Below the pieces are notes generated by a model, which was given only the letters and a program-made list of their open reading frames with translations, was not told where the DNA came from and searched no databases. Positions 5,137 to 40,293 of a DNA stretch of 64,000 bases are shown one piece after another; the stretch's first letter is position 1; every line of letters begins with the position of its first letter. Source of the stretch: Deltaproteobacteria bacterium (GTDB lineage Bacteria; Desulfobacterota; Syntrophia; Syntrophales; UBA2185). Location: the NCBI GenBank assembly GCA_026388545.1, contig JAPLJS010000075.1:9103-73102 (forward strand), written 5' to 3'. The translations under genes were made by a program, and so were the position numbers.

Positions 5137-5235
5137 CGCACGATACCCCCGCCTTAAAATTGATGAGGTGCTTTATATCATCCAATTAAACTCTTGACAC
5201 GTATTTTTAAAAATAATAAGAAAATATCGCGTTAT

Positions 5236-5323
5236 GCCTGGGTGGCGGAATTGGTAGACGCAAGGGACTTAAAATCCCTCGATACATAGTATCGTGCCGG
5301 TTCGACTCCGGCCCTAGGCACCA
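5236..5323 (+). tRNA. tRNA-Leu, anticodon UAA, CCA encoded
   Basis: Cloverleaf read by eye. Acceptor GCCTGGG/CCTAGGC has one G-U pair. The D arm is GGCG...ACGC. Anticodon stem AGGGA/TCCCT carries loop CTTAAAA. There is a long variable arm, T arm CCGGT TCGACTC CGGCC, discriminator A and CCA. Confidence 0.9.
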
Positions 5324-5331
5324 GTAATAAC

Positions 5332-5369
5332 AAGGGGTTATGCTCTACTCAGGGCATAACCCCTTTTTT
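5332..5369 (+). terminator. Rho-independent terminator after tRNA-Leu
   Basis: 12-bp perfect stem AAGGGGTTATGC / GCATAACCCCTT with a 10-nt loop, running into a T6 tract. Confidence 0.8.
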
Positions 5370-5492
5370 GCTTCAATTATGTTCATAAATAATTGAAATA
5401 TTTACTCGTATAGTGTACAAACTTATTGATTTCTTTTCTTAAAAACGGAACTAAATGTAGGAGGGTATGCGCTATTTAAGGAGCTATCGGAG

Positions 5493-7055
5493 ATGGAAGT
5501 CAAAGAGAAAACAAAAGGGCAGGCCATAAGAGAGTTGGAAGAATTGGATCAGCATGCTACTAAATTAAAAGAAGGAGAATCACATAACAAGCCGGCTGAG
5601 GAGTTACGGAAAGAGAATTCATCACGAATACTGGTTGTTGATGATGCCTCGGTAGACCTGGAGCTGCTGAAAAATATTCTTACGAATCATGGTTGTCAGG
5701 TAAGTACGGCCTCCAGCGGGAACATGGCACTGAGATCAGTGCCGGTTGAGATGCCGGATCTGATCCTGCTGGATGTGAAAATGCCGGGTATGGACGGCTA
5801 CGAGGTTTGCCGTCTGCTGAAGTCCGACGGACAAAGCCCCCAAATTCCGATAATCTTCATCAGTTCACTTGACGAGACCGAAGATATAGTTAAGGGCTTC
5901 AATGCGGGAGGTATTGATTTCATCAGCAAACCGTTTCAACCAGCCGAGATTATAGCCCGTGTAGAAACACACTTGGCCTTACGGCACCTGCAAAAGAAAT
6001 TAGAGGCGCAAAACATTCAACTACAACAAGAAATTAATGACCGCAAGCAGGTGGAGGAGGAGTTACAGCGATCACACGATAATTTAGAAAGACTGGTAGC
6101 AGAGAGAACTGACGAACTGCTCATAAAAAACCGGCAACTGGAAGCAGAGATCGAAGAGAGAAAAAAGGTTGAGGAATATTTAAGGGAATCAGAACAGCGC
6201 TTGTCTGATATTATTGATTTTTTACCCGATGCAACGTTTGCTATTGATAGTAAAGGTAAAGTAATTGCATGGAACAGGGCCATTGAAGAGATGACCGGTG
6301 CAAAGCCAGAGGACATTTTGGGGAAGGGGGATTATGAATATGCCCTGCCGTTTTACGGTATTCGGAGGCCGATACTGATTGATTTAGTGTTTAGCACCGA
6401 TGAAAGGGTCAGGAAGGAATATTCTTTTTTTAAGAAAGAGGGAGACGTTCTTTTGGCCGAAGGTAATGCATCTGTCAAGAATGAAATTCGAGTACTTTGG
6501 ACTAAAGCCAGTCCTTTATACGACTGCAGGGGTAATATTACGGGCGCCATAGAGTCTATCCGCGATATCACAGAGCGCAGACGGTCAGAGAACGCTTTGA
6601 AAAAAAGAGAAAAGGAATTGGATGTCAAAACCCGAAACCTCGAGGAACTCAATACCGCTTTGAAAGTCCTGCTGAAACAGAGAGAAGATGACAAAAATGA
6701 GATTGAAAAGAGAACAATGTCTAACGTCAAGGAACTCATTATACCCTATATCGACAAATTGAAAAAGGGAAGCTTGGATAGCAAAGATATGGCGTATCTA
6801 AGCATAGTTGAATCAAATCTCAACGGTATTTTATCCCCATTTTCACACAGACTTTCCACAAAATATATGAGTTTTACTCCTAAAGAGCTTCAGATAGCTC
6901 ATCTTATCACTGAAGGTAAAACAACAAAGGAAATAGCCGAATTGTTGAACACATCTACCGGAACAATTGATTTTCATAGAAACAATATCAGGAATAAACT
7001 GAATCTGAAAAATAGAAGGGCCAATCTTAGATCATATCTTTTAACATTATCGTGA
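5493..7055 (+). CDS. response regulator: REC - coiled coil - PAS - coiled coil - LuxR-type HTH
   Basis: 520-aa ORF with RBS TAAGGAG 9 nt upstream. The receiver domain reads RILVVDD...[16 protein letters not shown]...KP. A PAS segment spans [34 protein letters not shown]...[12 protein letters not shown]. The C-terminal [43 protein letters not shown] matches a LuxR/FixJ HTH. Confidence 0.85.
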   Translation: [520 protein letters not shown]

Positions 7056-7081
7056 AAAAAGCATTCTTCCTTCCATTTTAC

Positions 7082-8095
7082 CTATGATGCGGCACATATT
7101 TGGGCGAAGCGACCGACATTCTTATCTTCACCGAGAGCTATAAGTTTATCGCCTTTCGAAATGATATAATTTGCCATGGGGTTGAATATCATTTGGCCGG
7201 TATCTTTTTTAACCGCAATAATTATGAGACCGTAATGTTGTCTGATTTCTGATTCCTCTAATGATTTATCGATAATGGGTGATCCGTCGCAGATAGCGAG
7301 TTCTTCCATTCTCAGTCCAAGGCTCTGCCTCCTTGTTGTGATCTCAATGAAATCAAGCATTGCAGGCTTTGTAATTGCCATGGCCATTCTCATACCTCCC
7401 AGGGTGTAGGGAGAAATGACCCGATCGGCGCCCGCTTGCAGGAGTCTGTGTTCAGATTCCATTTCTTCGGAGCGAGAGAGTATATAGATATTCGGATTAA
7501 GTTCTTTCGCAGTCAGGATTACATAGAGATTTTGCGGATCGGTGGGGAGTGTACAAACAATACCCTTTGCCCTTTTTATACCGGTTTCAATAAGCGTCTT
7601 GTCCTGTGCGGCATCCCCCTTATAATATACGAATCCTTCTTCCTCGATTTTCTGAATGGCTTCCGGATTGTTATCGATCACGACAAAATCGACTTTTTCC
7701 GCTGATAACTCCTTGCATATGAGATATCCAATCCGGCCACACCCGCAGATAATGTAGTGATTGTTCAGTTTTTTCAGCATTTTTTCCAATTTACCCCTTC
7801 CTAAAATTAATCTGAAGCGTGACTCGACCATGGTTTCCGTGAAGAGAACAACGGTATACAGCATAGTGCCGACCCCAAAAATAACCAGAATAACAGTGAA
7901 TATCCTTCCCTCTTCTGTTTGAGGATAATAATCACCATACCCCACAGTAGAAAGGGTTATTACTGTTGTATAAAGAGACTCGGACAAGCTCCATCCCTCA
8001 ATAAGGTGATAACCTAATGTGCCGATTATAAAAAGTAAAAATAAACCTAACAGGGCTATTTTTAGATTGGTGGTCGGTATCAAGGAGACCTCCAA
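7082..8095 (-). CDS. potassium channel with RCK (TrkA-N/TrkA-C) gating domain
   Basis: 337-aa ORF with two TM helices flanking the K+ selectivity filter TVGYGD. A Rossmann motif ICGCGRIGY follows, with a C-terminal TrkA-C-like segment. Confidence 0.85.
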   Translation of the reverse strand: MEVSLIPTTNLKIALLGLFLLFIIGTLGYHLIEGWSLSESLYTTVITLSTVGYGDYYPQTEEGRIFTVILVIFGVGTMLYTVVLFTETMVESRFRLILGRGKLEKMLKKLNNHYIICGCGRIGYLICKELSAEKVDFVVIDNNPEAIQKIEEEGFVYYKGDAAQDKTLIETGIKRAKGIVCTLPTDPQNLYVILTAKELNPNIYILSRSEEMESEHRLLQAGADRVISPYTLGGMRMAMAITKPAMLDFIEITTRRQSLGLRMEELAICDGSPIIDKSLEESEIRQHYGLIIIAVKKDTGQMIFNPMANYIISKGDKLIALGEDKNVGRFAQICAAS

Positions 8096-26296: not shown

Positions 26297-27493
26297 ATGT
26301 ATCATCGCTCCATGTATCATATGCTGGTGAAGAGGCTGCAGGAACCGCGCCGGTTCATCCAGGTCCTCGCCGGGCCGAGGCAAACGGGGAAGACCACGAT
26401 CGTGCGCCAGGTTGTAGACGAGAACCTAATCCCGGTCCACTACGCCTCCGCGGACGAGCCCACCCTCCAGAGCCGGGCATGGATCGAGCAGCAGTGGGAA
26501 ACGGGGAGGCTCCTGGTTGCCGAGACGGGGGGCAAGGGCGGGGCTCTCCTGGTTCTGGATGAGGTCCAGAAGGTCACCGGCTGGTCCGAGGTTGTAAAAA
26601 GGCTTTGGGACAGCGACACCCACAATCGTATATCCCTCAAGGTCGTCCTCCTGGGTTCGGCGCCGCTCCTGATTCAGCGGGGGCTGACCGAAAGCCTCGC
26701 CGGCCGGTTTGAGATCATTCCCGTGATTCACTGGTCATACGCCGAAATGCGGGAGGCTTTCGGGTGGGATCTTGACCGCTTCATCTATTTCGGCGGCTAT
26801 CCCGGAGCGGCCGACCTGATCGCCGACCGACAACGCTGGTCGCGTTACATCATCGATGCACTCATCGAGACGACCCTTTCCCGAGACATCCTGCTCCTGA
26901 CGCGGGTCGACAAACCCGCCCTGCTCAGGCGCCTTTTTCAACTCGGTTGCTCCTTCTCCGGACAGATACTTTCCTACCAGAAAATGATCGGGCAGCTCCA
27001 GGATGCGGGCAATACGACGACCCTGTCCCATTACCTGGAACTGCTGGCCGGCGCCGGCATGCTGACCGGCCTGCAAAAGTTTGCCGCGCATCAGGTCCGC
27101 GAGCGGGCATCGAGCCCCAAGCTTCAGGTATTGAACACGGCGCTCATCACTGCGCAATCTCGGCTTACCTTCGATGAGGCGCGAAAGGATCGGGAGTTTT
27201 GGGGCAGACTGGTGGAATCGGCGGTTGGGGCGCATCTGATCAACAGCGCCACGGGAACGGGCATCGAATTGTTCTACTGGCGCGAGCGTGGCAGGGAGGT
27301 CGATTTTATCCTGCGTTCCGGCAAGACCGTGGTCGCCATCGAGGTCAAGAGCGGCTTACGTAAAGTAGGACTTCCGGGCATGGTCGCCTTTGACAAGACC
27401 TTCAAACCGCAGCGGAAACTGCTGGCCGGCGGCGACGGCATTCCTCTGGAAAAGTTCATGCTCACCCCGGCGGCGGCGTGGATCGCAGGATGA
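26297..27493 (+). CDS. AAA-family ATPase with DUF4143-like C-terminal domain
   Basis: 398-aa ORF with RBS AGGAGG upstream, Walker A LAGPRQTGKTT and Walker B LLVLDEVQ. The C-terminal half (...YPGAADL...ETTLSRDIL...ELFYWRERGREVDFIL) is typical of the AAA_14/DUF4143 family as I recall it. Confidence 0.75.
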   Translation: MYHRSMYHMLVKRLQEPRRFIQVLAGPRQTGKTTIVRQVVDENLIPVHYASADEPTLQSRAWIEQQWETGRLLVAETGGKGGALLVLDEVQKVTGWSEVVKRLWDSDTHNRISLKVVLLGSAPLLIQRGLTESLAGRFEIIPVIHWSYAEMREAFGWDLDRFIYFGGYPGAADLIADRQRWSRYIIDALIETTLSRDILLLTRVDKPALLRRLFQLGCSFSGQILSYQKMIGQLQDAGNTTTLSHYLELLAGAGMLTGLQKFAAHQVRERASSPKLQVLNTALITAQSRLTFDEARKDREFWGRLVESAVGAHLINSATGTGIELFYWRERGREVDFILRSGKTVVAIEVKSGLRKVGLPGMVAFDKTFKPQRKLLAGGDGIPLEKFMLTPAAAWIAG

Positions 27494-27501: not shown

Positions 27502-27692
27502 ACCCACAACGAGATAAACCGCTATCTGAATGCCGAAAAGCGTGGGTTGTTTGCTATGGTGGAAAATCTCTGGGCAAGTACGCCGTCTCCAGCCGTGAAC
27601 TGGAGCGGGAGCGTTCCGAAACCCTGCGGAAACTCGATGGCTTCCTCGAAGCCCTCGGTTATTATGGAGAAAAAGTGAAGAGTGAAGCTTAA
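27502..27692 (+). pseudogene. relic of the 3' end of a second hsdM allele (frameshifted)
   Basis: It aligns to 25951-26133 of the intact hsdM ([44 protein letters not shown]). One base is missing relative to hsdM (CTCTGGG-CAAGTAC versus CTCTGGGACAAGTAC). Its stop at 27690-27692 overlaps the start of the next gene. Confidence 0.85.
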
Positions 27693-28806
27693 GATATTCG
27701 TTAGCAGTGTTCAAAAGGAGTTTCAGCAAGTTCGTCTAGACTTGAAGGCGTTCCTCACAGGTGACGCTGTTCTCCATCGGTTCATCTCTGAGGTTTTCCT
27801 TTTTGAGGAACTTCCGGCGAAAGACCGCCGTGCCGACCAGGTTTACCTGGAAGAAGTGAAACGGTGTGACATCTATCTGGGAATCTTTGGTTACGACTAC
27901 GGCAACGAGGATAAGGATGGCGTCTCTCCTACCGAACACGAATACAACTATGCCGGCAAACATCGGAAAACCCGGCTTATCTATGTCTGGGGATCGGACG
28001 AAAAGAAGCGTGCGCCAAAAATGCGGCAACTGGTCAGTAACGCAAGCTCCGAGCTGATAAGACGCCGTATCGAAAACTTAAGTGCCCTAACGTCCGAAGT
28101 CTATGCCAGTCTTGTGGATTACCTCGACGGGTTGGGTGCCCTGCGTGTTCCACCCTTTGATACCTCCGTCTGTGCTGGCGCTACCTTTCATCACCTTTCC
28201 CGTAAGCGTATCGAGTGGTTTCTGGAAACTGCTCGCCGGGAACGCAATTTCCCCCTCAAGCAAAGCACGACGACGCAGGCCCTGCTCACCCATCTGAACC
28301 TGTCGGAAAAGGGAAAACCGACAAATGCGGCTCTGCTTCTCTTCGGAGCTGCCCCCCAGCGTTTTCACCGCACGGCTGAAACCAAATGCGTGCACTGCCA
28401 CGGCGACGAATATCGCCGCCCCTTCGCCTCCCAGCAGATCTATACCGGAGATGTCTTTGAGCAGGCCGATCAGGCGCGCGACTTTGTCCTTGCCAAGATC
28501 AATCGGGCGGTAGGTATCCGTGCAGAGAGCAATGTCGCGCCTGCCACCTACGAGCTTCCACCAGACGCTATCGGTGAGGCAATTGTTAACGCTGTTGCCC
28601 ACAGGGATTATCACAGCAACGCATCTGTTGAAGTTCGTCTCTTTTCCAACCGTCTTGAAGTCTGGAACCCGGGTAGGCTGCCCGGCACGTTGACATTCGA
28701 CGATTTGCGCCATGACCACCCTTCGGTGCCTCACAACCCTCTTATTGCCGAATCGCTTTACCTGACGCGATATATCGAAAAGCGGGCTCAGGCACTCAGC
28801 GTATGA
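27682..28806 (+). CDS. DUF4062-like N-domain fused to a RecG-like/HATPase_c_4 DNA-binding core, N-terminal ORF of a frameshifted gene
   Basis: GTG start. The N-terminus KIFVSSVQKEFQQVRLDLKAFL...CDIYLGIFGYDYG matches the DUF4062 pattern. The core reads NAALLLFGAAPQRF...IGEAIVNAVAHRDYHSNASVEVRLFSNRLEVWNPGRLPG...HNPLIAESLYLTRYIEK. Reading then breaks where the family continues with xGSGxxRM. Confidence 0.7.
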   Translation: MKLKIFVSSVQKEFQQVRLDLKAFLTGDAVLHRFISEVFLFEELPAKDRRADQVYLEEVKRCDIYLGIFGYDYGNEDKDGVSPTEHEYNYAGKHRKTRLIYVWGSDEKKRAPKMRQLVSNASSELIRRRIENLSALTSEVYASLVDYLDGLGALRVPPFDTSVCAGATFHHLSRKRIEWFLETARRERNFPLKQSTTTQALLTHLNLSEKGKPTNAALLLFGAAPQRFHRTAETKCVHCHGDEYRRPFASQQIYTGDVFEQADQARDFVLAKINRAVGIRAESNVAPATYELPPDAIGEAIVNAVAHRDYHSNASVEVRLFSNRLEVWNPGRLPGTLTFDDLRHDHPSVPHNPLIAESLYLTRYIEKRAQALSV

Positions 28807-29126
28807 TCGAACTTTGCAGGGAAGCAGGTTTGCCGGAGCCACAATTCGAGCAACGCAGTGGTTCATTCGTTATTACTCTCTGGCGGGACTGGTTGACTCC
28901 GGATGTGCTGGCCAAATTCAATCTGAATGAACGGCAAATCATGGGACTTGCCCTTCTTCGGTCGGAAGGGCGTATCACAAGTGGAACTTATCAGGAACAG
29001 ACCGGTGTAAGCCGGCAAACGGCGACTCGCGATTTGGAAGATATGGTATTAAAGGGCATTCTTGATCGTCATGGAACTCGCCGTGGAGCTTTTTATGTGA
29101 AGGCTAAGGGTATGCCTCAAGTATGA
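28803..29126 (+). CDS. C-terminal ORF of the same frameshifted gene (end of the HATPase_c_4 core plus a winged helix)
   Basis: In this frame the sequence upstream of the Met already reads AGSGTQRMIELCREAGLPEPQFEQRSGSFVITLWR, which is the expected continuation of ORF 27682-28806. A wHTH follows (ITSGTYQEQTGVSRQTATRDLEDMVLKGIL). Confidence 0.7.
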   Translation: MIELCREAGLPEPQFEQRSGSFVITLWRDWLTPDVLAKFNLNERQIMGLALLRSEGRITSGTYQEQTGVSRQTATRDLEDMVLKGILDRHGTRRGAFYVKAKGMPQV

Positions 29127-29274
29127 CTCATATGCCCCTTGGCGAGCAGCATTCTTAATGCCTCAGATATGCCCTAAATGCCTCAAGAAATCTTTGGGGG
29201 CGAAATCTGGTTTGGCGGATTGAAATGCCCTTCATGACCCGTCTTAAGAAAGGGGCCAAAGGGGCCATTTTCAA

Positions 29275-29844
29275 GTGTTGCAGGAATGTGCCACTCATCG
29301 GAAAGGGCTCACAAAGGGCTCAAAGGGCTCATGGTGTATGGAAGCCCAATGTAAACAGGATAGATATAATATGAATGCTTCTCAACTGGAAAGTGGACAT
29401 AAACTGGACAAACGGGACATTCTAACGGCGACTTCTAAAGGGGACACAAAGGGGACAAAGGGGACATTTTCAAGCAATGTCGGCCTTGACGAGCCTGAGT
29501 TTGCCTTTACGGACTGCTTTGTCGTTACTATCCGAAGAAAGCCTGAATTGGCCTTTAAGGCCGTAGGCGGGATAACCGGGGAAGTCACTGGGGAAGTTAC
29601 CGGGGAAGTAAAGAAACTCCTGACGGTACTGGTTGGAGAGATGAAACGTACAGACATCCAGAAGGCTCTGGCCATGCGGCATGAAGACTACTTCAGGGAG
29701 GCTTATCTCATTCCGGCGCTAACTGCCGATGTTATCGAAATGACAATCCCCGGCAAACCCACAAGCAGCAAACAGAAATACCGGCTTACCCAGAAAGGGC
29801 GCGACCTCATCGCGAAGCTGGCTGAAGGGGGAAAAGTGAAATGA
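29275..29844 (+). CDS. orphan C-terminal tail module of a RecG-like/Fic-associated protein, probably a gene remnant kept in frame
   Basis: Only the last ~125 codons look like protein: GLDEPEFAFTDCFVVTIRRKP...(TGEV)x3...KKLLTVLVGEMKRTDIQKALAMRHEDYFREAYLIPALTADVIEMTIPGKPTSSKQKYRLTQKGRDL. The start is uncertain (GTG at 29275 or ATG at 29371). The stop overlaps the hsdS start (ATGA). Confidence 0.45.
   Translation: MLQECATHRKGLTKGSKGSWCMEAQCKQDRYNMNASQLESGHKLDKRDILTATSKGDTKGTKGTFSSNVGLDEPEFAFTDCFVVTIRRKPELAFKAVGGITGEVTGEVTGEVKKLLTVLVGEMKRTDIQKALAMRHEDYFREAYLIPALTADVIEMTIPGKPTSSKQKYRLTQKGRDLIAKLAEGGKVK
29575..29610 (+). repeat. 3 x 12-bp tandem repeat encoding (TGEV)3
   Basis: ACCGGGGAAGTC / ACTGGGGAAGTT / ACCGGGGAAGTA, differing only at third codon positions. 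Confidence 0.8.
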
Positions 29845-31130
29845 GCGCTGTGGAAGGGTGGAAAACAGGTCGGCTCGGCGAATTATGCTCGATTGAGATT
29901 GGTGGAACTCCATCCCGTAGTAATCCAGACTTCTGGGATGCATCGAAGGATACGTCGAATCACTGGGTATCTATCAGAGACCTTAATCAAACTGTAATTA
30001 CTGATACTGCTGAACATATCTCAGATTCTGGGGTTAAGCATTCTAATGTGAAATTGCAGAATCCGGGAACCGTCCTTCTCAGTTTCAAGTTAAGCATTGG
30101 CCGAGTTGCTTTTGCTGGTGTGCCTCTCTATACGAATGAGGCAATTGCAGGCTTAAACTCAGATCAGATTAACACAAATTATTTATTCCATGGTCTTCAT
30201 CATTGGGACCTTTTGCAGGGTGTGGATCAGGCAATCAAGGGGGCGACTTTAAACAAGGAAAAGCTGAAAAAGATAACATTTAAGTATCCAGGCTCACTAT
30301 CCGAACAAACCAAAATCGCCGATATTCTCTCGACGGTGGATCGGGCGATTGAACAAACCGAGGCGTTGATTGCCAAACATCAGCGCATCAAGACCGGCCT
30401 GATGCAGGACCTCCTCACCCGCGGCATCGACGAACACGGCAACCTCCGCTCCGAAAAAACCCACCAATTTAAAAACTCCCCGCTGGGGCGGATTCCGGTG
30501 GAGTGGGAGATAAAATCATTCGGGGAGATTACAGGAAAATACGGAGGGATCCTCCAGACAGGGCCGTTTGGAAGTCAGCTCCATTCTTATGAGTATGTAG
30601 CTGACGGTGTTCCTGTGGTAATGCCCCAGGACATTGCTTCAAACGGCATTTCAACCGCTAATATTGCACAGATAACTGAGAAAAAAGCCCAATTTCTTAC
30701 AAGACACCGCATGATTCTGGGTGATTTGGTATTTGCCAGACGTGGCGATTTATCAAGGTGCGCTGTCATAGGCGAAAAAGAACGAGGATGGCTGTGCGGT
30801 ACTGGATGCCTGCTTATGAGACCACCCGTCAAGGTGCTTTCACCAAGATGGACAGCAAATACATACAGATTTCATTCAAGCCAATTGCAGGTTGCTGTAA
30901 GCGCCGTAGGTTCAACAATGCCCAATCTAAATACAGGCATTCTATCGGATATCAAGGTCGCTCTGCCATCAATTGAGGAACAGACCCGCATTGAGAGCCA
31001 ATTACAAGCTGTTGACTATGGCGAAGTAGCAGTTAGGAATCGACTGCATAAACTCCGCTCCCTTAAAGCCGCTCTCATGCAAGACTTGTTAACGGGGGAA
31101 AAGCGTGTCACCGCACTTTTGGATAATTAA
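29841..31130 (+). CDS. hsdS: Type I restriction-modification specificity subunit (two target-recognition domains)
   Basis: 429-aa ORF. The conserved central region reads EQTKIADILSTVDRAIEQTEALIAKHQRIKTGLMQDLLTRGID. The conserved C-terminal region reads EEQTRIESQLQAVD...LHKLRSLKAALMQDLLTGEKRV. Two variable blocks lie between them. Confidence 0.9.
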   Translation: MSAVEGWKTGRLGELCSIEIGGTPSRSNPDFWDASKDTSNHWVSIRDLNQTVITDTAEHISDSGVKHSNVKLQNPGTVLLSFKLSIGRVAFAGVPLYTNEAIAGLNSDQINTNYLFHGLHHWDLLQGVDQAIKGATLNKEKLKKITFKYPGSLSEQTKIADILSTVDRAIEQTEALIAKHQRIKTGLMQDLLTRGIDEHGNLRSEKTHQFKNSPLGRIPVEWEIKSFGEITGKYGGILQTGPFGSQLHSYEYVADGVPVVMPQDIASNGISTANIAQITEKKAQFLTRHRMILGDLVFARRGDLSRCAVIGEKERGWLCGTGCLLMRPPVKVLSPRWTANTYRFHSSQLQVAVSAVGSTMPNLNTGILSDIKVALPSIEEQTRIESQLQAVDYGEVAVRNRLHKLRSLKAALMQDLLTGEKRVTALLDN

Positions 31131-31211
31131 TAGGAGATCTTCTATGACTGTAAAAGACATTGCCATCTGGGACATTCACGCCTGCAAGGTCGGCAGGCAG
31201 GGAGAACCATC

Positions 31212-31475
31212 ATGAAAGTTGAAGGGCAAGACTGGCATTGGCAAAATGGAAATGGCCTTTCCGTGCAGATCGGGAAAGTAAACGATCATGGCCAAAGATG
31301 TGGTGGCCATCGCGGTGTCTTGGGTTCGGACTTCAACCAGTATGCCTATAAGGTTGAGTGTACTTATTGCGGCCACGTTTATGGGGCAAATGGGAGCGAC
31401 ATGCACGAACGCCTATGCCCCGCCTGCCAAGGTGGAGCCATGGGAATCCGTTTCTGGCAGGTCCAAGAAGGCTAA
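31212..31475 (+). CDS. small zinc-ribbon protein (87 aa), unknown function
   Basis: CTYC (31359-31370) and CPAC (31416-31427) sit 15 residues apart, forming a CxxC...CxxC knuckle pair. GGGAGA lies 7 nt upstream of the ATG. It is on the same strand and packed between hsdS and the giant ORF. Confidence 0.55.
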   Translation: MKVEGQDWHWQNGNGLSVQIGKVNDHGQRCGGHRGVLGSDFNQYAYKVECTYCGHVYGANGSDMHERLCPACQGGAMGIRFWQVQEG

Positions 31476-31544
31476 CTGCCTGAAAAGAAATAATAGATAT
31501 ATCAATATGATTAATGTAGATTTCATGTTCCAAGGAGCGACATC

Positions 31545-34500
31545 ATGGGACCGGAAATAGTCGTCGGAATTCTCGGGGGATGGTTGTGGAAAAAGCTTAC
31601 TGATGCCACCGAGTCTACAGATGAGAATATTGCGATCAAAAAGGCCTTCGACGCTGCTGTAGGAAAAGGTTATGAGCTTTTTTCAAAAAAGTACAGTAAC
31701 TTTGCTGCCTCATTATTCGATCAGGCTTTCTTGGAAAACTACGCAGGTCCTGAGTTAAGCAAATATCTGACGCGTCATGAATATCCTAATCCCGCAAGCA
31801 TTGCTGCAGCATATAGTTCTCAGTTCCATGTATCGTTACCAGATGGGGTTGAAGAAGCAGTCGCCGATTTCCTTGATTTCATCTTACAGGCACTGAAGGA
31901 ACAACCGGCGCTTCAAGATATTCTCGATCGGAGAGAGATCGAAGATACTAACCGGTTAGTTGGTGAAGTCCACAAGGCCATAATATCGACTGAAGAAGAC
32001 TGGCAAACTCTTGAGGATGCAAGTTGTGATGCAATTGCCCGCATTAGGGACGATATTGCAAACACAGTGTGTTTGACTCTCGGTCCTGACAAGAAAATGC
32101 TTAATGTAGTCTTTCAGGAAAAAGGCGCAGCCATTTTCATAGGCCCTTCCGGTTGCGGCAAATCAGCACTGGCTAAACGAATCGCCATGAATTCAGGTTT
32201 GTTTTCACGTTTCATATGGTTGACTGCCGAAATCTTAAATAAACCGACGTTAGTTGAAACCGAGAGGTCGCTTGGCCTGCGCCATACCTTTCACGCTGTT
32301 TTTGCTAATGCCAAAGGACTGCGAATCCTTTTGGTTGTGGATGCAATGGAATCCCTCACCAATGAGGGCATCGCCAATATGGCCCACGTGATGCGCGCCA
32401 CAAAAGAAGCCGGTCACCGGACCGGCTGGAGTTATCTTCTCATTTCACAACCAGAAGGCTGGGATCAGGTCGCCTTTAACCTTCGCCGCTCCGGGGTGTC
32501 ATTGGATGATTTTCAAGTAATACAAGCATCAGGACCTTCAAAAAAGGATGTTCAATGCGTGCTCTCCTGTATGCCTGGCCTTCTGCCCATAGCCTATAGC
32601 CCCACACTTCCCGATATTCTGACCAATCTCAAGCTTCTGGATCACGTGGCGAGTCAGGCAAGAATTAAGCCGCCTGAAGCAGGAGCAGCATGGACAAGTG
32701 CGGCACAGGTCGTTGATTGGGTTTGGGAAGGCTGGCTTGGAACAGGCAAGGGCCGATACGCACGTGGCGGAGTACTAAAGCTCCTCGCTGAGATAGAAGC
32801 CGATTCCTTCGGGAGGGGAATTGCACTCTCTCGACTGTCCGCAGAGCAACATGCTATTCTCGCACCCCTTGAAGACGATGAAAAGCTAATCAACGTCCGT
32901 AACGAGCGAGTCTTTTTTCGCCACGATTCGACTGCCGATTGGGCCAGATACCTCAGTTTAGCGGGTGAGGTTCCACTATCTCCTCGCCTGCGAGAATTAT
33001 CTTCATACCCGAAATGGAATACGGCAATCCGCTTGGTGGGACAGCGAGTCTTGGACAAGGGTGATTCAACCGGAACGGAGTGGGCGGCACTGCTTGAGGA
33101 GGTTGCCGATGGATCGCCGCGAGGAGAAGCAGCACAGGACCTGCTTCTTGATGCCGTGATTCTGTCCACAAACTCAACAACACATCTGGACAAGATTTGG
33201 CCGATCATCGTGAAAGAAAATGGCAAGCTCCTCCAACGTCTATTGAACCGGTTCCTCCATGTGGCGACAATTCCTGACCGACAGATTCTTCTCATAGCGC
33301 CGGAAGATGAAAAAATGCGACGCTATCTCGCCAGTACTATGAGGGAGCCGATATTTATCTATTGGTGGGCTTTTGTGGACTGGGTTTACCGGAATTTGGA
33401 GAATGTCATTAATTTGGCTCCAATCCCCTTGGCCAAGATATGCACCATATGGTTAAGCAATATGTCCATCGCCAAGGGTAAGCAAAAACCTTGGACACGG
33501 AGGAAGCAAGTGGCGGAAATGGCGCGCGCACTGGCCAGGGAATTACAGGCGAAAGATATGGAACATTCCCCTGTAAGAGAAGCGGGAAAAGTAGCATATA
33601 AAGCAGCATTTCTGGCTGCTTCCGAAATCCCCGATGAGATAGGCCAATGGGCGCTGGAAATGGCCAAGCGTCGTCCTCCGTCGCCAGACATTTTGGCACG
33701 TCAAGAAGCTTACTTGAATAAGGAAGCAGAACGACAGAAACAGCTCGCAGATCCCGCATATCAAGAAAGAATGAATGAAATGGCTTATCTTACGACGCCT
33801 ATATTAGCACTGGGACCATTGAGAGATCCATGGCCAGACGGACCTCTGGCGATGGTTGACCATACCTTCCAGAAGGGTGCACTTGATATGTGGACACTGT
33901 TGCCTCTTATGGCGGCAAAACCGGCACTTGCTCAAGAACTTATTCTATCCCTTTCCATCGAGCATCCTTCCCATGAAAGAGAGGGCTCTATATCATCGTA
34001 TGAGTGGTGTGGACTTCAATTCGGCAACGACGGCACGCCAGCGATGTATTTTCGCGGCCCTTTTCTTGTCTTCCTGCAAATCAATCCGAAAGTCGCCTTG
34101 GATACAATTATCCGGCTTGTGAATTTTGCTACAGACAGATTTTGTGAACGGATGTCAAAGCATCGAGGATACGGAGGAAAGGCTCAGGCCTGGAGCGTGC
34201 AAATTCCTCTCGCCGATGGAGAAGCGGTCTGGTGTGGTGACCACCGGGTCTTCGGATTCTTCCGAGGCGAAACATTTAACACTGCTCTATTATCTTCTGC
34301 ACTAATGGCTGTGGAGAAATGGCTATACGATAAGATTGAAAAGGGCGAAGAAGCAGACGAATGGATCGGACAAATTCTTGAAGGTAGCCGGTCAGTGGCT
34401 TTCGCCGGGCTGCTTCTAACTGTAGGGAAGAAGTCTCCCGCCCTACTGGAGGGGATTCTTTTGCCCTTGCTCGGCGCCTGGCAATTCTATCAATGGGACC

Positions 34501-36500
34501 AAAGTCTCATCATGAATGGTGACGTTTGGAGAATCTCTATGATGAATTGGGTGTCTCACGGCGAGAAGATCTACGACCAGGTCATCGCATGGCATACCCT
34601 TTCGCATCGTAAGGCTGATCTTTCCAACGAAGCTTTACGGCTCTTCTTTAGCAGTCAACCTGTTAGGGACTTTTTTAATGAGATGTATGTACGATGGACG
34701 TCTGACGAAGAGACGCGGGAGGCGACAAAATACATCGCTGAACGCTTCAATCCCAAGAACTATGCGCTGAAAAAGGGAAGCGACGAGAAGCACGTGGAAA
34801 TCCATTTTCAGTGGCCTGAGCACATGCAGGAGGAAACCTCTGCAAATTTAAAAAAATCCGAAGATGGAATGCTCTTACTCTCTTTCCCTGTGAAGTGCCG
34901 TCGTATACTGGATGGAGAAATAAGCCTATCCAGCACTGAATTGGAAGAGTTCTGGTCCCAAATCCAGCATATCTCTACCATGGCTGAGCAAGATATTGAA
35001 ATCGAGAGGGCAAGCCAGCGTGTGGATGCGCTTTGCGGAGGCATTGCCGTCTTATTCCTCCACCACAGGGAGTGGTTGACAGAATTCCCGGAAAAGGAAG
35101 AATGGTGCATCAAATATATTTTCGATACTCTCGCTGACCCACCCCGACCATCTCAGTTTGATTGCGAGGATTCAATAAGCGGGCTGCATTGGGATGCATT
35201 TGTCGGAGAAGCGGGAGTTCTTCTTCTTACAGAAGAACCAGACAATGAGCATGCAAGATTTGTTGCAGCTCATGGGGTAATGGCCTATCATGAGGAAGCA
35301 ACCGGCAGTACACTTACCCGCGCATTCCGTCTGCGTGAGAAACTCGGAGAAGAATTCACCCGCCTCCTCAACTTAAGTCTCCTCTGGACAACCCTGAAAT
35401 ATTTGCGGCCGATGGAACATCATGAAAGTGCAGAAATAGAAAAGTGGGGAAGGTGGGTGGATAGACTTTTTAGATATTTTGTTGCCGGCAAGGTACCTTC
35501 TGCCCCCATTTCCGTCGGGCGTTTGGCTAAGGCTGGATCGCGCATTTACGAAAGACGGTATCACCGAAGGCAATGCAAGCGTTATCCGGGATATGTGCCG
35601 AAGCGACTACTTTGGAACGGCGGGATGCACCCCTCTTTGCTTAGAAAATCGCTGTCATGGCTCAGCGCTGCAAAGATGAACGACCCTCATCTGCCGCTAG
35701 GACTCATCGATGATATTTCTTTGGCTCTTTTGGAATTCAGCATATCAGCTGCCTCCCTAGAGGATGATAATGAATACTACGACCATCACAATATTCCTAA
35801 TGAATTTGACCTATGGGTATTTGAGGTTCTCTCCTCGCATATTTTGAAGAGAGCAATTCCCGATGAGTCCTCTAAATTCTGGAAGCCCCTTTTCGATGTC
35901 GGCCCACCTCTGCATAATTGGCCGAAGTTTTTCCTTATGTCATGGTTTAGAACCTGTTTGCAGTCAGCGGAGTGTCTAGAAGATTTCACTAGGCATTGGG
36001 CCACAATGATCGCTTATGTCTTGGATCATCCGAAATGGAAAGAAACGAATTCACAACAATACTATGATAGCGAGGAAGTGATTTGCCAACTTATGGGAAT
36101 GGATTCTGAGGCCCGAATTGTTGGGGAGGGCCGCTTTGAAAAAGCGCTGGAATCTCTTCAACCTTATTACGATAGTTGGAGAAAACGGTGGCTGCAGGGG
36201 CAGCATAGCCTTATGAATTTCTGCAGGCTTTTGACATACCCCGCTGCAAGGCCGCTCCGAACCAAGGGTGTCTTATGGGTACGCGAAGTCTTGACGGGCG
36301 AGACCCATTTTGGCTCAAGAGAAAAGTATCTTGAGGAAGCGCTACTAAACATGCTTCACATTTTCTGGGCTGAACATCGAAAAATCTTGCATGATGATCC
36401 CTCGCTTAAAGAAGCCTTTTTGGATATCCTCACATGGCTTGTCCAGCGGCTAAATCCGGGAGCATTAGAGCTTCAGGATGAGTTTATCAGAAGCGGATAA
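31545..36500 (+). CDS. giant (1651 aa) P-loop NTPase of unrecognised family, STAND-like tripartite layout
   Basis: An uninterrupted 4956-nt ORF with AAGGAG 8 nt upstream. Walker A is FIGPSGCGKSALAKR (GPSGCGKS = 32142-32165) and the Walker B-like motif is RILLVVDAME (32322-32351). It has a ~190-aa helical N-region and a ~1300-aa Trp-rich C-region in which I recognise no catalytic motif. Confidence 0.85.
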   Translation: MGPEIVVGILGGWLWKKLTDATESTDENIAIKKAFDAAVGKGYELFSKKYSNFAASLFDQAFLENYAGPELSKYLTRHEYPNPASIAAAYSSQFHVSLPDGVEEAVADFLDFILQALKEQPALQDILDRREIEDTNRLVGEVHKAIISTEEDWQTLEDASCDAIARIRDDIANTVCLTLGPDKKMLNVVFQEKGAAIFIGPSGCGKSALAKRIAMNSGLFSRFIWLTAEILNKPTLVETERSLGLRHTFHAVFANAKGLRILLVVDAMESLTNEGIANMAHVMRATKEAGHRTGWSYLLISQPEGWDQVAFNLRRSGVSLDDFQVIQASGPSKKDVQCVLSCMPGLLPIAYSPTLPDILTNLKLLDHVASQARIKPPEAGAAWTSAAQVVDWVWEGWLGTGKGRYARGGVLKLLAEIEADSFGRGIALSRLSAEQHAILAPLEDDEKLINVRNERVFFRHDSTADWARYLSLAGEVPLSPRLRELSSYPKWNTAIRLVGQRVLDKGDSTGTEWAALLEEVADGSPRGEAAQDLLLDAVILSTNSTTHLDKIWPIIVKENGKLLQRLLNRFLHVATIPDRQILLIAPEDEKMRRYLASTMREPIFIYWWAFVDWVYRNLENVINLAPIPLAKICTIWLSNMSIAKGKQKPWTRRKQVAEMARALARELQAKDMEHSPVREAGKVAYKAAFLAASEIPDEIGQWALEMAKRRPPSPDILARQEAYLNKEAERQKQLADPAYQERMNEMAYLTTPILALGPLRDPWPDGPLAMVDHTFQKGALDMWTLLPLMAAKPALAQELILSLSIEHPSHEREGSISSYEWCGLQFGNDGTPAMYFRGPFLVFLQINPKVALDTIIRLVNFATDRFCERMSKHRGYGGKAQAWSVQIPLADGEAVWCGDHRVFGFFRGETFNTALLSSALMAVEKWLYDKIEKGEEADEWIGQILEGSRSVAFAGLLLTVGKKSPALLEGILLPLLGAWQFYQWDQSLIMNGDVWRISMMNWVSHGEKIYDQVIAWHTLSHRKADLSNEALRLFFSSQPVRDFFNEMYVRWTSDEETREATKYIAERFNPKNYALKKGSDEKHVEIHFQWPEHMQEETSANLKKSEDGMLLLSFPVKCRRILDGEISLSSTELEEFWSQIQHISTMAEQDIEIERASQRVDALCGGIAVLFLHHREWLTEFPEKEEWCIKYIFDTLADPPRPSQFDCEDSISGLHWDAFVGEAGVLLLTEEPDNEHARFVAAHGVMAYHEEATGSTLTRAFRLREKLGEEFTRLLNLSLLWTTLKYLRPMEHHESAEIEKWGRWVDRLFRYFVAGKVPSAPISVGRLAKAGSRIYERRYHRRQCKRYPGYVPKRLLWNGGMHPSLLRKSLSWLSAAKMNDPHLPLGLIDDISLALLEFSISAASLEDDNEYYDHHNIPNEFDLWVFEVLSSHILKRAIPDESSKFWKPLFDVGPPLHNWPKFFLMSWFRTCLQSAECLEDFTRHWATMIAYVLDHPKWKETNSQQYYDSEEVICQLMGMDSEARIVGEGRFEKALESLQPYYDSWRKRWLQGQHSLMNFCRLLTYPAARPLRTKGVLWVREVLTGETHFGSREKYLEEALLNMLHIFWAEHRKILHDDPSLKEAFLDILTWLVQRLNPGALELQDEFIRSG

Positions 36501-36733
36501 GTTAAGAGAAAAAGGGACGCTTTCCGTATAAATTATTGTTCATTCTTTTGGGAGCGGCCTGTCTCAGAGGAATAAAGGACAGGTTCTAATTATCTTTGAG
36601 ACAATGTGTAACAATAGAATTGCCCCCTTTTGTCATAGTGCGAGGGTCCCATTAACAAAAAAAACACCCCATTACATCAAGCACAACGAGCGCAACCACT
36701 CTCCAAGAACCCTCTGTGGAGGGAGGATATATA

Positions 36734-37114
36734 ATGACTGACCGCTACACTCCGACATGCTACATAAGCCCCGGCATTCTGCATAGTATCGAGCAGATTG
36801 GGGAGGCTTTGAGTAATCTCCGGGAGGGGTCTGACAATGCTATTGTTCCCGTTCTGCGGCGCGGCAACCGCATCAAAACCACTCAGGCATCGCTGGCAAT
36901 CGAAGGCAACTCGCTGAGGCTGGAACAGGTCACGGCGGTACTGTCCGGCAAACGGGTGTTGGCGCAACCCCGTGAAATTCAGGAGGTGCGAAACGCGAGC
37001 GATCAAGAAAGCGACCATCAAAGCGACCAAGTAATATGTCTGATTTGCGCCCGCAATCAGAAATACCGCCTGACAGCGCACGGCTTACAATTGCTGAACA
37101 AAGGGGAAATCTAA
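36734..37114 (+). pseudogene. internally deleted fic gene (Fic_N region fused to the extreme C-terminal tail, catalytic core missing)
   Basis: GGAGG RBS, then MTDRYTP...ISPGILHSIEQIGEAL...PVLRRGNRIKTTQASLAIEGNSLRLEQVTAVLSGKRVLAQPREIQEVRNA, a Fic N-terminal region with the S-x-x-x-E-G motif at 36890-36910. This joins directly to ...ARNQKYRLTAHGLQLL, the tail seen in 29275-29844. No HPFxxGNGR motif is present. The stop overlaps the hsdR ATG (TAATG). Confidence 0.7.
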
Positions 37115-40100
37115 TGCAGGACAAAACGCCACAGTACATCAAGATCGACGAGCGCAATCACGTCGAGAAGCCCCTACTCGATCAGCTTGACGGGCTGGGC
37201 TGGGAGGTCATCGATTTTGACGGCAAGCAGCACCCCGGTGACAGCTACCGCCAGAGCTTCACAGAGGTGGTGATGCTGCCGGTTCTGCGGGCGCAACTCA
37301 AGGTCATCAACGACTGGCTGGAAGACGATCAGGTGGAGGAGGTGATCAAACAGCTCACGGCGAACTTTCCCGGTGCGGGATTAATTCAAAACAACCGCCA
37401 CGCCTTTACCCTGCTGCTGGAGAACACCAGTGTCAGCGAGAACCGCCGAACGGGAGAGAAAAGCCCGACCGTATGTTTTGTAGACTTTGACCATCAGGAG
37501 AACAACCGCTTTATCGCCGTCTGCCAGCTCAAGGTGCGCATCCTGGGCACCGAGTACCACATCGTTCCGGACATCGTCCTGTTCCTGAACGGTCTGCCGG
37601 TGGCGGTGATCGAGTGCAAGTCGCCCAAGGTCAAAGACGCCATCCCCGAAGCCATCGACCAGTTACTGCGCTATGGCGAGCAGCGCGGAGCGAAGGGAGA
37701 GGGCAGTGCGCCGCTTTTCTATTACAACCAGATCGTGATCGCCACCTGCAGAAATGAGGCCAAGTTCGGCACCATCACCACCCATAGCGAGAAGCACTTC
37801 TACCGCTGGGCCGATCCCTATCCCCGCACAGTGGATGATCTGGAGCACGGCGGCAGCGGCCCCAACGATCAGCAGCGCCTGGTCGCCGGGATGCTGGACC
37901 GCGACAATCTGCTGGATATCATCCGGACCTTCACCCTCTTTTCGAGCAACGACAAGGGCGAGACGATCAAGATCGTGGGGCGCTACCAGCAGTTCCGCAC
38001 CGTCAAGCTGGCGGTGAAGCGCCTGCTTACGGGCCAAACCCCGCGCGAGCGCAGCGGCATCATCTGGCACACCCAGGGCTCGGGCAAATCGCTGACCATG
38101 ATGTTCATGGTGCGGGAGATGTATCGTCATGCCCGGCTCTCTCGCTGGAAAGTGGTCTTTGTGACCGATCGCACCCAGTTGGAAGGCCAGCTAACTGAGA
38201 CCAGCAGGAGCATCGACTTTACGGTCAAGGTGGCGGACAGCATCAGGAAGCTCAAGGAACTGCTGGGCTCGGATTCCTCGGATCTGGTCATGGCCATGAT
38301 CCATAAGTTCCGTGAAGCCGATCTGACCGAGACCTTCCCGGAGCTGAATGCCAGCCCGAACATTCTGGTGATGACCGACGAAGCCCACCGCTCCCAATAC
38401 GCCATGCTCGGGGCCAATCTCGACAAGGGCATCCCCAACGCCGCCCGCATCGGCTACACCGGCACGCCCATCGACAAGACCGAACGGGTTTTCGGCGACT
38501 ACATCGATAAATACACCATGCGCCAGTCCATCGATGACGGCGTGACGCTGGAGATTGTTTACGAAGGCCGCACCCACAACGCCGAAGTGGCCGATCAGAC
38601 CGGCATGGACACGGCTTTCGCAGATGTCTTCAGCGACTACAACCTCCAAGAGCGCCTGAAGATTCTCGGTTACGGCTCCCGCGACGCTTATCTGGAAGCC
38701 GAGCCCACCATCGAGGCCAAGGCCAAAGACATGGTGACCCACTACCTGACCCATATATTTCCCAATGGCTACAAGGCGCAAGTAGTGGCCACCTCCCGCG
38801 AGGCGGCAGTGCGTTACAAGAAGCACATAGACAACGCCCTGGCGGCTGCCCTCGCCGACCTTAAACAGACCAATCCACGGAGGCTCGACCTCGACCAGCT
38901 GAGTAAGCTGAAGACGGATTTCATCATCTCCGGCAGTCACAACGACCTGCCTCATCTCAAGGCCTATTCGGACAGTTCCAGGCACGAGGCGAGCATCAAA
39001 AGCTTCAAGATGGCCTTCGGGGGCGAGGAGGAAGGTGTCACCGGGGACATGGGGATCTTGATTGTGATGAATATGCTCATTACCGGCTTTGATGCCCCGG
39101 TGGAGCAGGTGATGTATCTGGACAAGGTCATTGTGGCCCACAATCTTCTTCAGGCCATCGCCCGCGTCAATCGTGTGGCCGGTGAGATGAAGGACAAGGG
39201 CTTCGTGGTTGATTATGTGGGCATCGGCCACCACCTGAAGAAGGCCATCGACACCTACGATGAGCGCGAACAAAAGGAAGTGCTCGACACCTTGAGCTTT
39301 CCCGAGGAGGAACTGCGTGAACTACGAGCCAGCCATGCCGCCGTCATGGATCTGCTTAAAAACCACGGTCTGACGGACCTGACCGATCACGATGCGTTCT
39401 TTGATCTCTTTTATGACGAAGATCTGCGTTTCGATTACATGCTGGCATTCAAGAATCTGACTCAGTGCCTGAACGTGGTCTTTCCCGCCCGGCAGGCCCT
39501 TGACTATATGGCCGACTACCAGGCCCTTGCCGCGATCAATGTGATGGCTGCCAAACACTTCCGCGATGAGCGACTGAGCATGAAAGGCATCCTGCCCAAG
39601 CTGCGCGGCATCACCGATGCCTATCTGGAGTCAAAGGGGATTGAGGTAAAGGTCGAGCCGATCTCCATTCTCGATGCGGATTTTCAGAAACAGGTCGGCA
39701 ATCGGAGCCGCACCAAGACCAAGGCGGCGGAGGTGGAGCACGCCATTCGCCACCACCTCGATGTCGAGCTGGACGACGACCCCGATCTGCAAGCCTCCTT
39801 TGCGGAGGCGCTGGCGGTGATTTTCAAGGAGTTCCGCGACAACTGGAACAAGATCTACGAGGAACTGGAGAAACTGCGGGCGCGCATTATCGATGTCGGC
39901 AAGGAACCGACCTATGGGTTGCACCGCAAGAAGCAGATGCCGCTCTTCCGGATGTTCAAGCGAGAAATCTTCGGGGAATTCTTTGGGCAAGACGGCGTTC
40001 AACTGCCGGAAGGGGCGCTTGGGATAGCGGAAAGGATGAGTGCGGAAGATAAAATCAGCCACCTGGTTGATTTGACGCAGCAGTCCTTCCTCGTGGTGGA

Positions 40101-40293
40101 GCGGGAACTGAAACTCACGGGCTTCTGGGAGAGCATCCCCGCCCGCCAAAAGCTGAGGGCGGACCTTCAGATGATCCTGCTTGCTCCGGAATTCTCCAAG
40201 CTTCCCGGTATTGTAAGGAACCGCGCCCATATCATCTCCCGGATTATGGAATTCGCCGAAAATAAAAACGACGTCATTCTTTACGCGGAATAG
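37114..40293 (+). CDS. hsdR: Type I restriction enzyme endonuclease/translocase subunit
   Basis: I prefer the ATG at 37114 (AAGGGGA upstream; MQDKTPQYIKIDERNHVEKPLLDQL) to the track start at 37036, which overlaps the fic remnant. The nuclease motif reads VPDIVLFLNGLPVAVIECKSP. Helicase motif I is HTQGSGKSLTM, motif II is VMTDEAHRSQ, and a later motif reads LITGFDAP...QAIARVNR. Confidence 0.9.
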   Translation: MQDKTPQYIKIDERNHVEKPLLDQLDGLGWEVIDFDGKQHPGDSYRQSFTEVVMLPVLRAQLKVINDWLEDDQVEEVIKQLTANFPGAGLIQNNRHAFTLLLENTSVSENRRTGEKSPTVCFVDFDHQENNRFIAVCQLKVRILGTEYHIVPDIVLFLNGLPVAVIECKSPKVKDAIPEAIDQLLRYGEQRGAKGEGSAPLFYYNQIVIATCRNEAKFGTITTHSEKHFYRWADPYPRTVDDLEHGGSGPNDQQRLVAGMLDRDNLLDIIRTFTLFSSNDKGETIKIVGRYQQFRTVKLAVKRLLTGQTPRERSGIIWHTQGSGKSLTMMFMVREMYRHARLSRWKVVFVTDRTQLEGQLTETSRSIDFTVKVADSIRKLKELLGSDSSDLVMAMIHKFREADLTETFPELNASPNILVMTDEAHRSQYAMLGANLDKGIPNAARIGYTGTPIDKTERVFGDYIDKYTMRQSIDDGVTLEIVYEGRTHNAEVADQTGMDTAFADVFSDYNLQERLKILGYGSRDAYLEAEPTIEAKAKDMVTHYLTHIFPNGYKAQVVATSREAAVRYKKHIDNALAAALADLKQTNPRRLDLDQLSKLKTDFIISGSHNDLPHLKAYSDSSRHEASIKSFKMAFGGEEEGVTGDMGILIVMNMLITGFDAPVEQVMYLDKVIVAHNLLQAIARVNRVAGEMKDKGFVVDYVGIGHHLKKAIDTYDEREQKEVLDTLSFPEEELRELRASHAAVMDLLKNHGLTDLTDHDAFFDLFYDEDLRFDYMLAFKNLTQCLNVVFPARQALDYMADYQALAAINVMAAKHFRDERLSMKGILPKLRGITDAYLESKGIEVKVEPISILDADFQKQVGNRSRTKTKAAEVEHAIRHHLDVELDDDPDLQASFAEALAVIFKEFRDNWNKIYEELEKLRARIIDVGKEPTYGLHRKKQMPLFRMFKREIFGEFFGQDGVQLPEGALGIAERMSAEDKISHLVDLTQQSFLVVERELKLTGFWESIPARQKLRADLQMILLAPEFSKLPGIVRNRAHIISRIMEFAENKNDVILYAE

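Follow-up and report, generated by a model that had tools for sequence, protein, structure and literature searches.

A putative divergent Avs4-lineage STAND receptor encoded between hsdS and hsdR of a type I restriction-modification operon

What are the two genes that separate hsdS from hsdR in a type I restriction-modification (R-M) operon of a deltaproteobacterium? The locus lies in a stretch of 64,000 nucleotides (GenBank assembly GCA_026388545.1, contig JAPLJS010000075.1, positions 9,103 to 73,102 of the forward strand), hereafter the window. The first gene encodes an 87-residue zinc-ribbon-like protein and the second a P-loop NTPase of 1651 residues. An initial annotation, made from the sequence alone, had regarded the pair as an undescribed defence module embedded in the R-M operon, either a STAND-like sensor or a guard of the type I enzyme, and could place it in no named family. 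This candidate R-M-embedded two-gene system is instead classed here as an Avs-type STAND sensor. The 1651-residue protein is probably a single-protein antiviral pattern-recognition receptor on a divergent Avs4 branch, independent of the type I enzyme and without relation to the zinc-ribbon protein (estimated probability of about 0.72).

The two open reading frames (ORFs) were confirmed on the same strand, with 69 nucleotides between them. The larger is uninterrupted and has the strong ribosome-binding site ascribed to it, AAGGAG at 31532-31537, 7 nucleotides 5' of the ATG. The Walker motifs were also found at the nucleotides first assigned to them. The features of the two genes are as follows.

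31212..31475, + strand: 87-residue zinc-ribbon-like gene, an ORF with CTYC...CPAC
31545..36500, + strand: gene of the 1651-residue putative Avs4-lineage STAND NTPase, coding sequence including the stop codon, 1651 codons
31545..32066, + strand: NNH2-like all-helical N-terminal domain (residues 1 to ~150) and long connecting helix to residue 174
32142..32165, + strand: Walker A motif GPSGCGKS (residues 200-207), with G200, S202, G203, G205 and K206 invariant, aligned with the P-loop of EcAvs4
32325..32351, + strand: Walker B region ILLVVDAME (residues 261-269), with D266 invariant, aligned with VIVVDSAEKL of EcAvs4
32985..36497, + strand: C-terminal helical, Trp-rich sensor region (residues ~481-1651), homologous by profile to the Avs4 sensor
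34035..34649, + strand: best-conserved sensor core (residues 831-1035; GPF...LVNFATDR...SALMA.EKWLY...SRSVA...VGKK), with a direct Avs4 match and a cluster of invariant columns

Homology of the NTPase and sensor to Avs4

The protein is identical to MCX5846497.1, an "ATP-binding protein" from a Deltaproteobacteria metagenome-assembled genome. Among 5.8 billion proteins, 15 relatives were retrieved by a word-indexed search, including the identical entry, four proteins with 66-87% identity, eight with 24-33% identity (1542-1806 residues) and a Providencia protein (P0015). Five sequences were found of the small subfamily of the window protein, which has the helical N-terminal domain. When the 1651-residue sequence was searched alone, domain libraries yielded, apart from the local Avs4 match described below, AAA matches below threshold only, and the Protein Data Bank (PDB) yielded generic AAA+ and ABC P-loop matches only; EcAvs4 was reached via a family profile. 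Relatives match NACHT, nSTAND1 and nSTAND3 weakly, under the Pfam curated cut-offs. Nuclease, protease, TIR, SIR2, methylase and helicase domains were not found in the protein by Pfam, PADLOC and NCBIfam scans, in agreement with the initial annotation.

The relationship to Avs4 is supported by several profile comparisons. The NCBIfam profile NF041815 (Avs4) matches residues 831-1035 locally (E = 1.4e-17, profile positions 778-983), and the same sensor core is matched by PADLOC Avs4 (E = 1.1e-12), the sole PADLOC match of the protein. The relatives P0006 and P0008 match the ATPase region of NF041815 with E values of 2e-31 and 5e-33. Judged by its sequence, P0015 is clearly an Avs4-clade protein, as it scores 654 bits over positions 175-1578 of NF041815 and matches the EcAvs4 structure 8DGF with an E value of 1e-84. 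A profile (A1) built from a 12-sequence family alignment matched EcAvs4 (8DGF_A) with an E value of 3.7e-18 over four collinear stretches, namely the P-loop, the next helical region, the sensor core and the C-terminus; those beyond the P-loop cover 8DGF residues 447-654, 762-1086 and 1479-1575. Comparison of the family with P0015 by hhalign gave a probability of 100% and an E value of 1.2e-39 over 1283 aligned columns, again collinear. Together, these matches indicate that the NTPase and the ~1170-residue Trp-rich region are homologous to the ATPase and the sensor of Avs4. The layout first proposed, with an N-terminal domain, an STAND-type NTPase and a long helical sensor, therefore holds, whereas the protein can no longer be considered undescribed or without a named family.

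The Walker residues listed above, D266 included, are invariant in the 12 aligned sequences. The ratio of non-synonymous to synonymous substitution rates (dN/dS) of the NTPase gene is 0.21 when compared with the 87% identical copy at locus L001, with values of 0.16-0.23 for individual segments and 0.16 for the N-terminal domain. This indicates purifying selection along the whole gene, which is probably functional.

Like Avs4 (EcAvs4, 8DGF, NF041815), the window protein is a single large polypeptide that combines an N-terminal output domain, an STAND P-loop NTPase and a helical sensor of more than 1000 residues, the homology is collinear through ATPase and sensor, and the gene has a defence-island context. 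Unlike EcAvs4, it has no N-terminal Mrr-like PD-(D/E)xK nuclease but an NNH2-like helical domain instead.

The N-terminal domain and the proposed output

One genome per GTDB species was scanned for further relatives. These were present in at least 137 species, from Acidobacteriota, Planctomycetota, Cyanobacteria, delta- and alphaproteobacteria and other groups. Eighty of them were fetched, and these match the query over residues ~150-1651 only. A different N-terminal domain of ~270 residues, with the pattern TGGxGFxFE...DD...SxK and here termed canonical, is found in 63 of the 80 genome relatives, as well as in P0006-P0013 and P0015. Its residues D61, D62, S79 and K81 are invariant. The proteins of this TGGxGFxFE group (P0006-P0013, L019-L098 and P0015) share the NTPase and sensor of the window protein with 24-37% identity over residues ~150-1651, and on this basis they appear to be its own, Avs4-like family. 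The window protein differs in lacking the canonical domain, and the window-type domain was found in none of the 80 genome relatives.

The motif layout of the canonical domain is like that of Cap4/DUF4297-type PD-(D/E)xK nucleases, but the suspicion of such a nuclease was not confirmed. Its best PDB match was AbpA (8ZUE, E = 0.13). A Pfam scan of five full-length relatives gave no nuclease family, and a PADLOC scan of 13 sequences gave only PDC-M54A (3 of 13) and likewise no nuclease family.

The window N-terminal domain was searched exhaustively with HMMER against 1.84 billion representative proteins (E ≤ 1e-3). Relatives were found in 290 proteins, with an N-terminal position in every match listed. 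Of 36 long matches, 18 carry NACHT, 20 AAA_16 and fewer nSTAND1, nSTAND3 or nSTAND5, with TPR or HEAT tails. Five of the 36 are TPR-GreAB-C-PIN proteins (PF20698), whose N-termini are the nearest relatives of the window domain (E = 7e-46 to 3e-23). They possess no P-loop, and TPR, GreA/B-C and PIN RNase domains stand in place of the NTPase and Avs4-like sensor. P0042, P0043, P0047 and P0050, of ~1300 residues each, are such proteins. As these nearest relatives lack a P-loop, the NNH2-like module appears to be common to STAND and non-STAND conflict systems.

The window domain was aligned with the N-termini of the 36 relatives (alignment A5, 37 sequences). Pfam NNH2 (PF22734) was matched by 14 of the 37 sequences with a best E value of 2e-8, and P0044 matches it over positions 21-177 of the 181 in the model. 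The window domain itself gave no direct NNH2 match at E ≤ 0.1, so that the link is transitive, through its relatives. These profile matches suggest that it is distantly related to NNH2. The domain name comes from a survey of bacterial NACHT proteins by Kibby et al. (10.1101/2022.07.19.500537), in the available part of which NNH domains are given a name and no function. Bacterial NACHT/NLR-like proteins with NNH domains appear to share this class of N-terminal helical module with the window protein, whose NTPase and sensor are Avs4-like and not of the NACHT clade.

Structure prediction and comparison of the N-terminal region, which had been recommended at the outset, were carried out with AlphaFold2 and Foldseek. 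A first model, based on four sequences, had a predicted local distance difference test (pLDDT) score of 63 and a meaningless Foldseek result. It was redone with the 37-sequence alignment, which gave a confident model (pLDDT 92.5) of seven helices: a short hydrophobic helix at residues 3-18 (MGPEIVVGILGGWLWKKL), five more helices, and a long helix (residues 121-174) that runs into the NTPase. In PDB and BFVD, Foldseek found no match to this model below an E value of 0.6, and searching PDB with a profile gave none below 0.1. Bcl-xL, BAX and IncA, which were retrieved with E values of ~1 and TM-scores of ~0.2, are not taken as evidence of structural likeness. No catalytic motif was found in the domain by the Pfam, PADLOC and NCBIfam library scans.

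From these comparisons, the NNH2-like domain appears to be a shuffled N-terminal module, borne also by other STAND proteins, and in the window subfamily this 150-residue domain seems to replace the canonical domain of ~270 residues. Many interchangeable N-terminal effectors are known in Avs families (PMC13581612). The window protein would be a sensor of the Avs4 lineage that has acquired, in exchange for its N-terminal domain, a module common to hundreds of NACHT/STAND and TPR-GreAB-C-PIN proteins, and it offers a compact, single-gene test case for the role of NNH-type domains.

A mechanism is proposed by analogy with Avs3, Avs4 and Avs7 (PMC13581612). The ~1170-residue C-terminal helical sensor would bind a phage protein made during infection. 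Binding would relieve autoinhibition, and the P-loop module would bind ATP. Oligomerization of the NTPase would then bring the N-terminal domains together and switch on the output by proximity. This output would reside in the canonical domain in most of the family, and in the NNH2-like helical bundle in the window subfamily. As the latter is devoid of a catalytic motif, it may act without enzymatic activity, for example by perturbing the membrane or by assembling upon proximity, or it may recruit a partner in trans. Given its hydrophobic first helix, a membrane-directed role is plausible enough to be considered. The presence of the NNH2-like module on proteins equipped with a PIN domain suggests that it may serve assembly, targeting or recruitment rather than killing. 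A non-enzymatic executioner, released upon sensor-driven oligomerization and perturbing the membrane or nucleating a death-inducing assembly, is a speculative and rather unlikely form of the output. If it were true, the domain would be a bacterial counterpart of the coiled-coil or HeLo-type output of plant and fungal nucleotide-binding leucine-rich repeat receptors, placed on an Avs4-type sensor. A variant, in which the domain links the sensor with the adjacent R-M enzyme, is less likely.

Genomic neighbourhoods and competing explanations

The neighbourhoods of the relatives bear out the defence context that was first proposed for the giant protein. BREX and CBASS systems lie directly upstream of P0006, P0011 is adjoined by a TIR-nSTAND1-WD40 protein and a CHAT protein, and P0007 is immediately preceded by a complete type I operon. 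The two nearest ORFs on either side of 33 genome relatives include Dsr2, DISARM DrmA/D, Lit, AbiEi, LmuB, CapP, BrxH, SoFic and PDC-S05, together with four integrases, transposases and three other NACHT proteins. Recurrence within hsd operons, which the initial annotation had suggested checking, was not the rule: HsdR/M/S-like ORFs occur within 10 kb at only 4 of the 80 fetched loci. The family resides mostly in defence islands or mobile regions and is defence-associated, with no specific tie to type I enzymes.

In two loci of close relatives, L106 (85% identical) and L107 (83% identical), the NTPase gene directly follows a type IIG/MmeI-like methyltransferase gene. The L106 homolog (2798-7725) is called as two ORFs of 1025 and 605 residues that continue one protein, which points to a pseudogene (frameshift or nonsense) or else to an error in the assembly. 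It is flanked by an MmeI/Eco57I-type methyltransferase upstream and an MqsA-like/Peptidase_M78 pair downstream.

The zinc-ribbon protein has 25 homologs with 60-95% identity and a core NGQRCCGHRGV...YKVEC..CG.VYGANGSDMHER.CP.C, in which Y46, K47, C50, C53, C69 and P70 never vary, and C30 and H33 are almost as constant. At 31299-31304 (codons 30-31) the window copy has RCGGH where 23 of the 25 homologs have RCCGH, a glycine replacing one of two adjacent, nearly invariant cysteines; among the exceptions, two homologs have CR and one misses the region. The homologs adjoin integrases, a transposase or an Rce1-like gene, or sit in a primase/DUF3987 element, and a large NTPase gene was not found beside the 25 that were examined. 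Relatives with 41-51% identity occur in six predicted viral contigs of IMG/VR (L099-L104). A search of phage records gave no match, and that of plasmids and chromids two weak ones. No Pfam family is recorded for any homolog, and the sole PHROG match is weak (phrog_13335, E = 1e-3) and of unknown function. A hidden Markov model of the family was positive in 3 of 91 NTPase-family loci (L001-L003), all three being syntenic copies of the window operon. The gene is absent upstream of P0003 and P0005, and between the methyltransferase and NTPase genes of L106 and L107. The zinc-ribbon gene is therefore not conserved as a partner of the NTPase and appears to be a co-oriented passenger, a small mobile gene in its own right. 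At the level of the family, the NTPase is independent of both the zinc-ribbon gene and the type I genes. A confident profile match to a described defence family and a non-conserved zinc-ribbon partner, two outcomes named in advance as speaking against an undescribed two-gene module, were thus both found.

Synonymous divergence (dS) from L001 is uneven along the locus. It amounts to 0.06 for the zinc-ribbon gene, 0.11 for the N-terminal domain and 0.26-0.39 for the remainder of the NTPase gene, and the zinc-ribbon gene with the intergenic DNA is ~98% identical in nucleotides to the L001/L002 copy. This mosaic, seen when 30301-32000 is compared with 32000-36500, suggests a recent recombination that carried the zinc-ribbon gene and the 5' end of the NTPase gene, which codes for the N-terminal domain.

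These data bear on the other ways in which the locus may be read. The zinc-ribbon protein could act together with the NTPase, for example if the NNH2-like domain recruits it as effector, adaptor or regulator. The co-orientation and short spacing of the two genes, kept in L001-L003, would fit such a pair, as would their low dS, which points to joint movement in one recently exchanged segment, and the lack of a recognizable enzymatic effector in the NTPase. The pairing is improbable, however, since the zinc-ribbon gene is missing from 88 of the 91 family loci, including those of the 83% and 85% identical NTPases, the three positive loci represent one syntenic operon, and the homologs of the gene, some of them viral, are found in unrelated contexts devoid of a large NTPase. 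It is also conceivable, at slightly longer odds, that the protein is a disarmed or non-defence derivative, which lost the canonical domain and now serves as a regulator, a decoy or a housekeeping STAND protein. Defence and non-defence STAND clades are reported to be interspersed (Lee et al., PMC13581612), the usual N-terminal domain of the family is missing, and no effector-type domain was detected by Pfam, PADLOC and NCBIfam. Purifying selection over the whole 5-kb gene, N-terminal domain included, and intact Walker motifs speak against such decay, as do the nature of the replacement, which recurs at the N-terminus of NACHT and other conflict-system proteins, and the location of the gene in a defence operon alongside PDC-S01, DUF4062 and Fic genes.

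The remaining alternative, a guard of the R-M system, would have the sensor respond to anti-restriction proteins or, in the manner of PrrC, to a block of the type I enzyme, and trigger abortive infection. The NTPase gene occupies the slot between hsdS and hsdR in which prrC sits at the EcoprrI locus. PrrC itself is almost exclusively embedded in type I R-M systems (10.1101/2024.01.29.577857). Each informative locus of the NNH2-bearing subfamily has an adjacent R-M gene, and a type I operon also lies next to the distant relative P0007. Against a guard, no type I gene was seen within 10 kb of 76 of the 80 genome relatives, the R-M partner varies between type I in the window and type IIG-like in L106 and L107, and the sensor shares homology with that of Avs4, whose ligand is a phage structural protein (PMC13581612). 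Like the window gene, those of PrrC/RloC and TgvAB lie inside a type I hsd operon (PMC11411939; 10.1101/2024.01.29.577857), but their products have no sequence or domain similarity to the window protein. In PrrC, an ABC-type ATPase is joined to an anticodon nuclease, and TgvAB resembles GmrSD; neither was matched in PADLOC, which also showed no similarity to RloC, and the window NTPase has only weak ABC-like similarity in its P-loop. A role as guard of the type I enzyme is consequently very improbable, the least likely of the three.

Several observations weigh against an Avs4-lineage receptor that acts independently of R-M. The protein shares less than 20% identity with EcAvs4 and scores 62.3 bits against an NCBIfam equivalog cut-off of 1500, a value that P0015 also fails to reach (654 bits). 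For this reason it is treated as a divergent relative rather than an equivalog of Avs4, and its trigger is not to be deduced from that of Avs4, the phage portal protein. The N-terminal domain has neither a structural match (Foldseek, PDB profile) nor a known activity, which makes the output step a guess. Since its nearest relatives, the TPR-GreAB-C-PIN proteins, already bear a PIN effector, the domain may not be the executioner. Lastly, an R-M gene adjoins the NTPase gene at every informative locus of the NNH2-bearing subfamily, so that some functional link to R-M may exist.

Organization of the operon and its passengers

The neighbouring features of the window are as follows.

26297-27493, + strand: PDC-S01 phage-defence-candidate gene, AAA_14 and DUF4143 (PADLOC E = 1e-178)
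27682-29844, + strand: three consecutive ORFs, DUF4062 with HATPase_c_4, helix-turn-helix (HTH), and Fic-like_C
ending at 31130: hsdS, Methylase_S match
31144-31215, + strand: upstream ORF of 23 codons (MTVKDIAIWDIHACKVGRQGEPS and stop), in a frame different from that of the 87-residue gene
36716/36734..37114: putative Fic remnant ORF with a Fic-N-like SLAIEGN motif
37036/37105..40293: hsdR, TIGR00348 match (E = 3e-139)

Three other loci (L001-L003), whose NTPase is 87% identical, have the order hsdM, DUF4062/HATPase_c_4/Fic-like_C, hsdS, zinc-ribbon, NTPase, hsdR and YgjP-like gene. An AbiEi/AbiEii pair occupies the position of the Fic remnant of the window. The PDC-S01 gene, located between hsdM and the DUF4062 gene in the window, is missing from the otherwise syntenic L001 operon and is therefore another passenger. 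These differences indicate that the hsd operon accumulates and exchanges defence passengers. Defence genes embedded in type I operons are documented, with TgvAB in Vibrio (PMC11411939) and in a "guilt-by-embedding" survey of type I R-M operons (10.1101/2024.01.29.577857). The presence of the NTPase gene in the hsdS-hsdR gap would be explained by R-M operons being common landing sites for other defence genes. As a probable Avs-type gene within a type I operon that already carries several defence passengers, it adds a clear example.

The G+C content is 0.46-0.51 over 29-37 kb and 0.56-0.61 in hsdM and hsdR. The lower value, from which a foreign insertion of the zinc-ribbon and NTPase genes had been proposed, is thus real, but it is not confined to these two genes, as hsdS has the same low G+C. 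Taken with hsdS, the NTPase gene looks foreign in composition to hsdM and hsdR. A promoter and terminator scan of 30.9-37.3 kb found sites no more frequent than in shuffled sequence, and the intergenic gaps gave none; at this level the scan is uninformative on separate transcription of the genes.

Position 31144, given at first as the start of the zinc-ribbon gene, begins the 23-codon upstream ORF and not the 87-residue gene. This ORF has a strong ribosome-binding site (TAGGAG), and its TGA overlaps the ATG of the zinc-ribbon gene (ATGA). It is kept in L001 and L002, three of six substitutions being silent in its frame. Candidate explanations are a leader peptide, a device for translational coupling or a remnant.

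The three ORFs at 27682-29844 encode a 374-residue DUF4062 and HATPase_c_4 protein, with PADLOC similarity to SIR2/pAgo-associated proteins, a 107-residue HTH protein and a 189-residue Fic-like_C protein. A single 504-residue DUF4062/HATPase_c_4/Fic-like_C gene is found at this place in L001-L003. As only the last ~390 nucleotides can be aligned, the window holds a rearranged or different allele. The hsdS gene aligns with that of L001 (~90%) from 30301 on only, and its 5' half (29841-30300) differs. The first target-recognition domain is thus different, so that operons that are nearly identical in other respects should differ in DNA specificity.

Downstream of the NTPase gene, the short ORF at 36716/36734-37114 had been called a Fic remnant, and its SLAIEGN motif, beyond which no other domain is recognizable, is consistent with this. 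It is flanked by two segments, 36626-36713 and 37123-37262, that both match the same ~175 bp of L001 (14950-15125), just downstream of the L001 NTPase gene. The region 36626-37262 has the look of a site of cassette exchange whose junction was duplicated.

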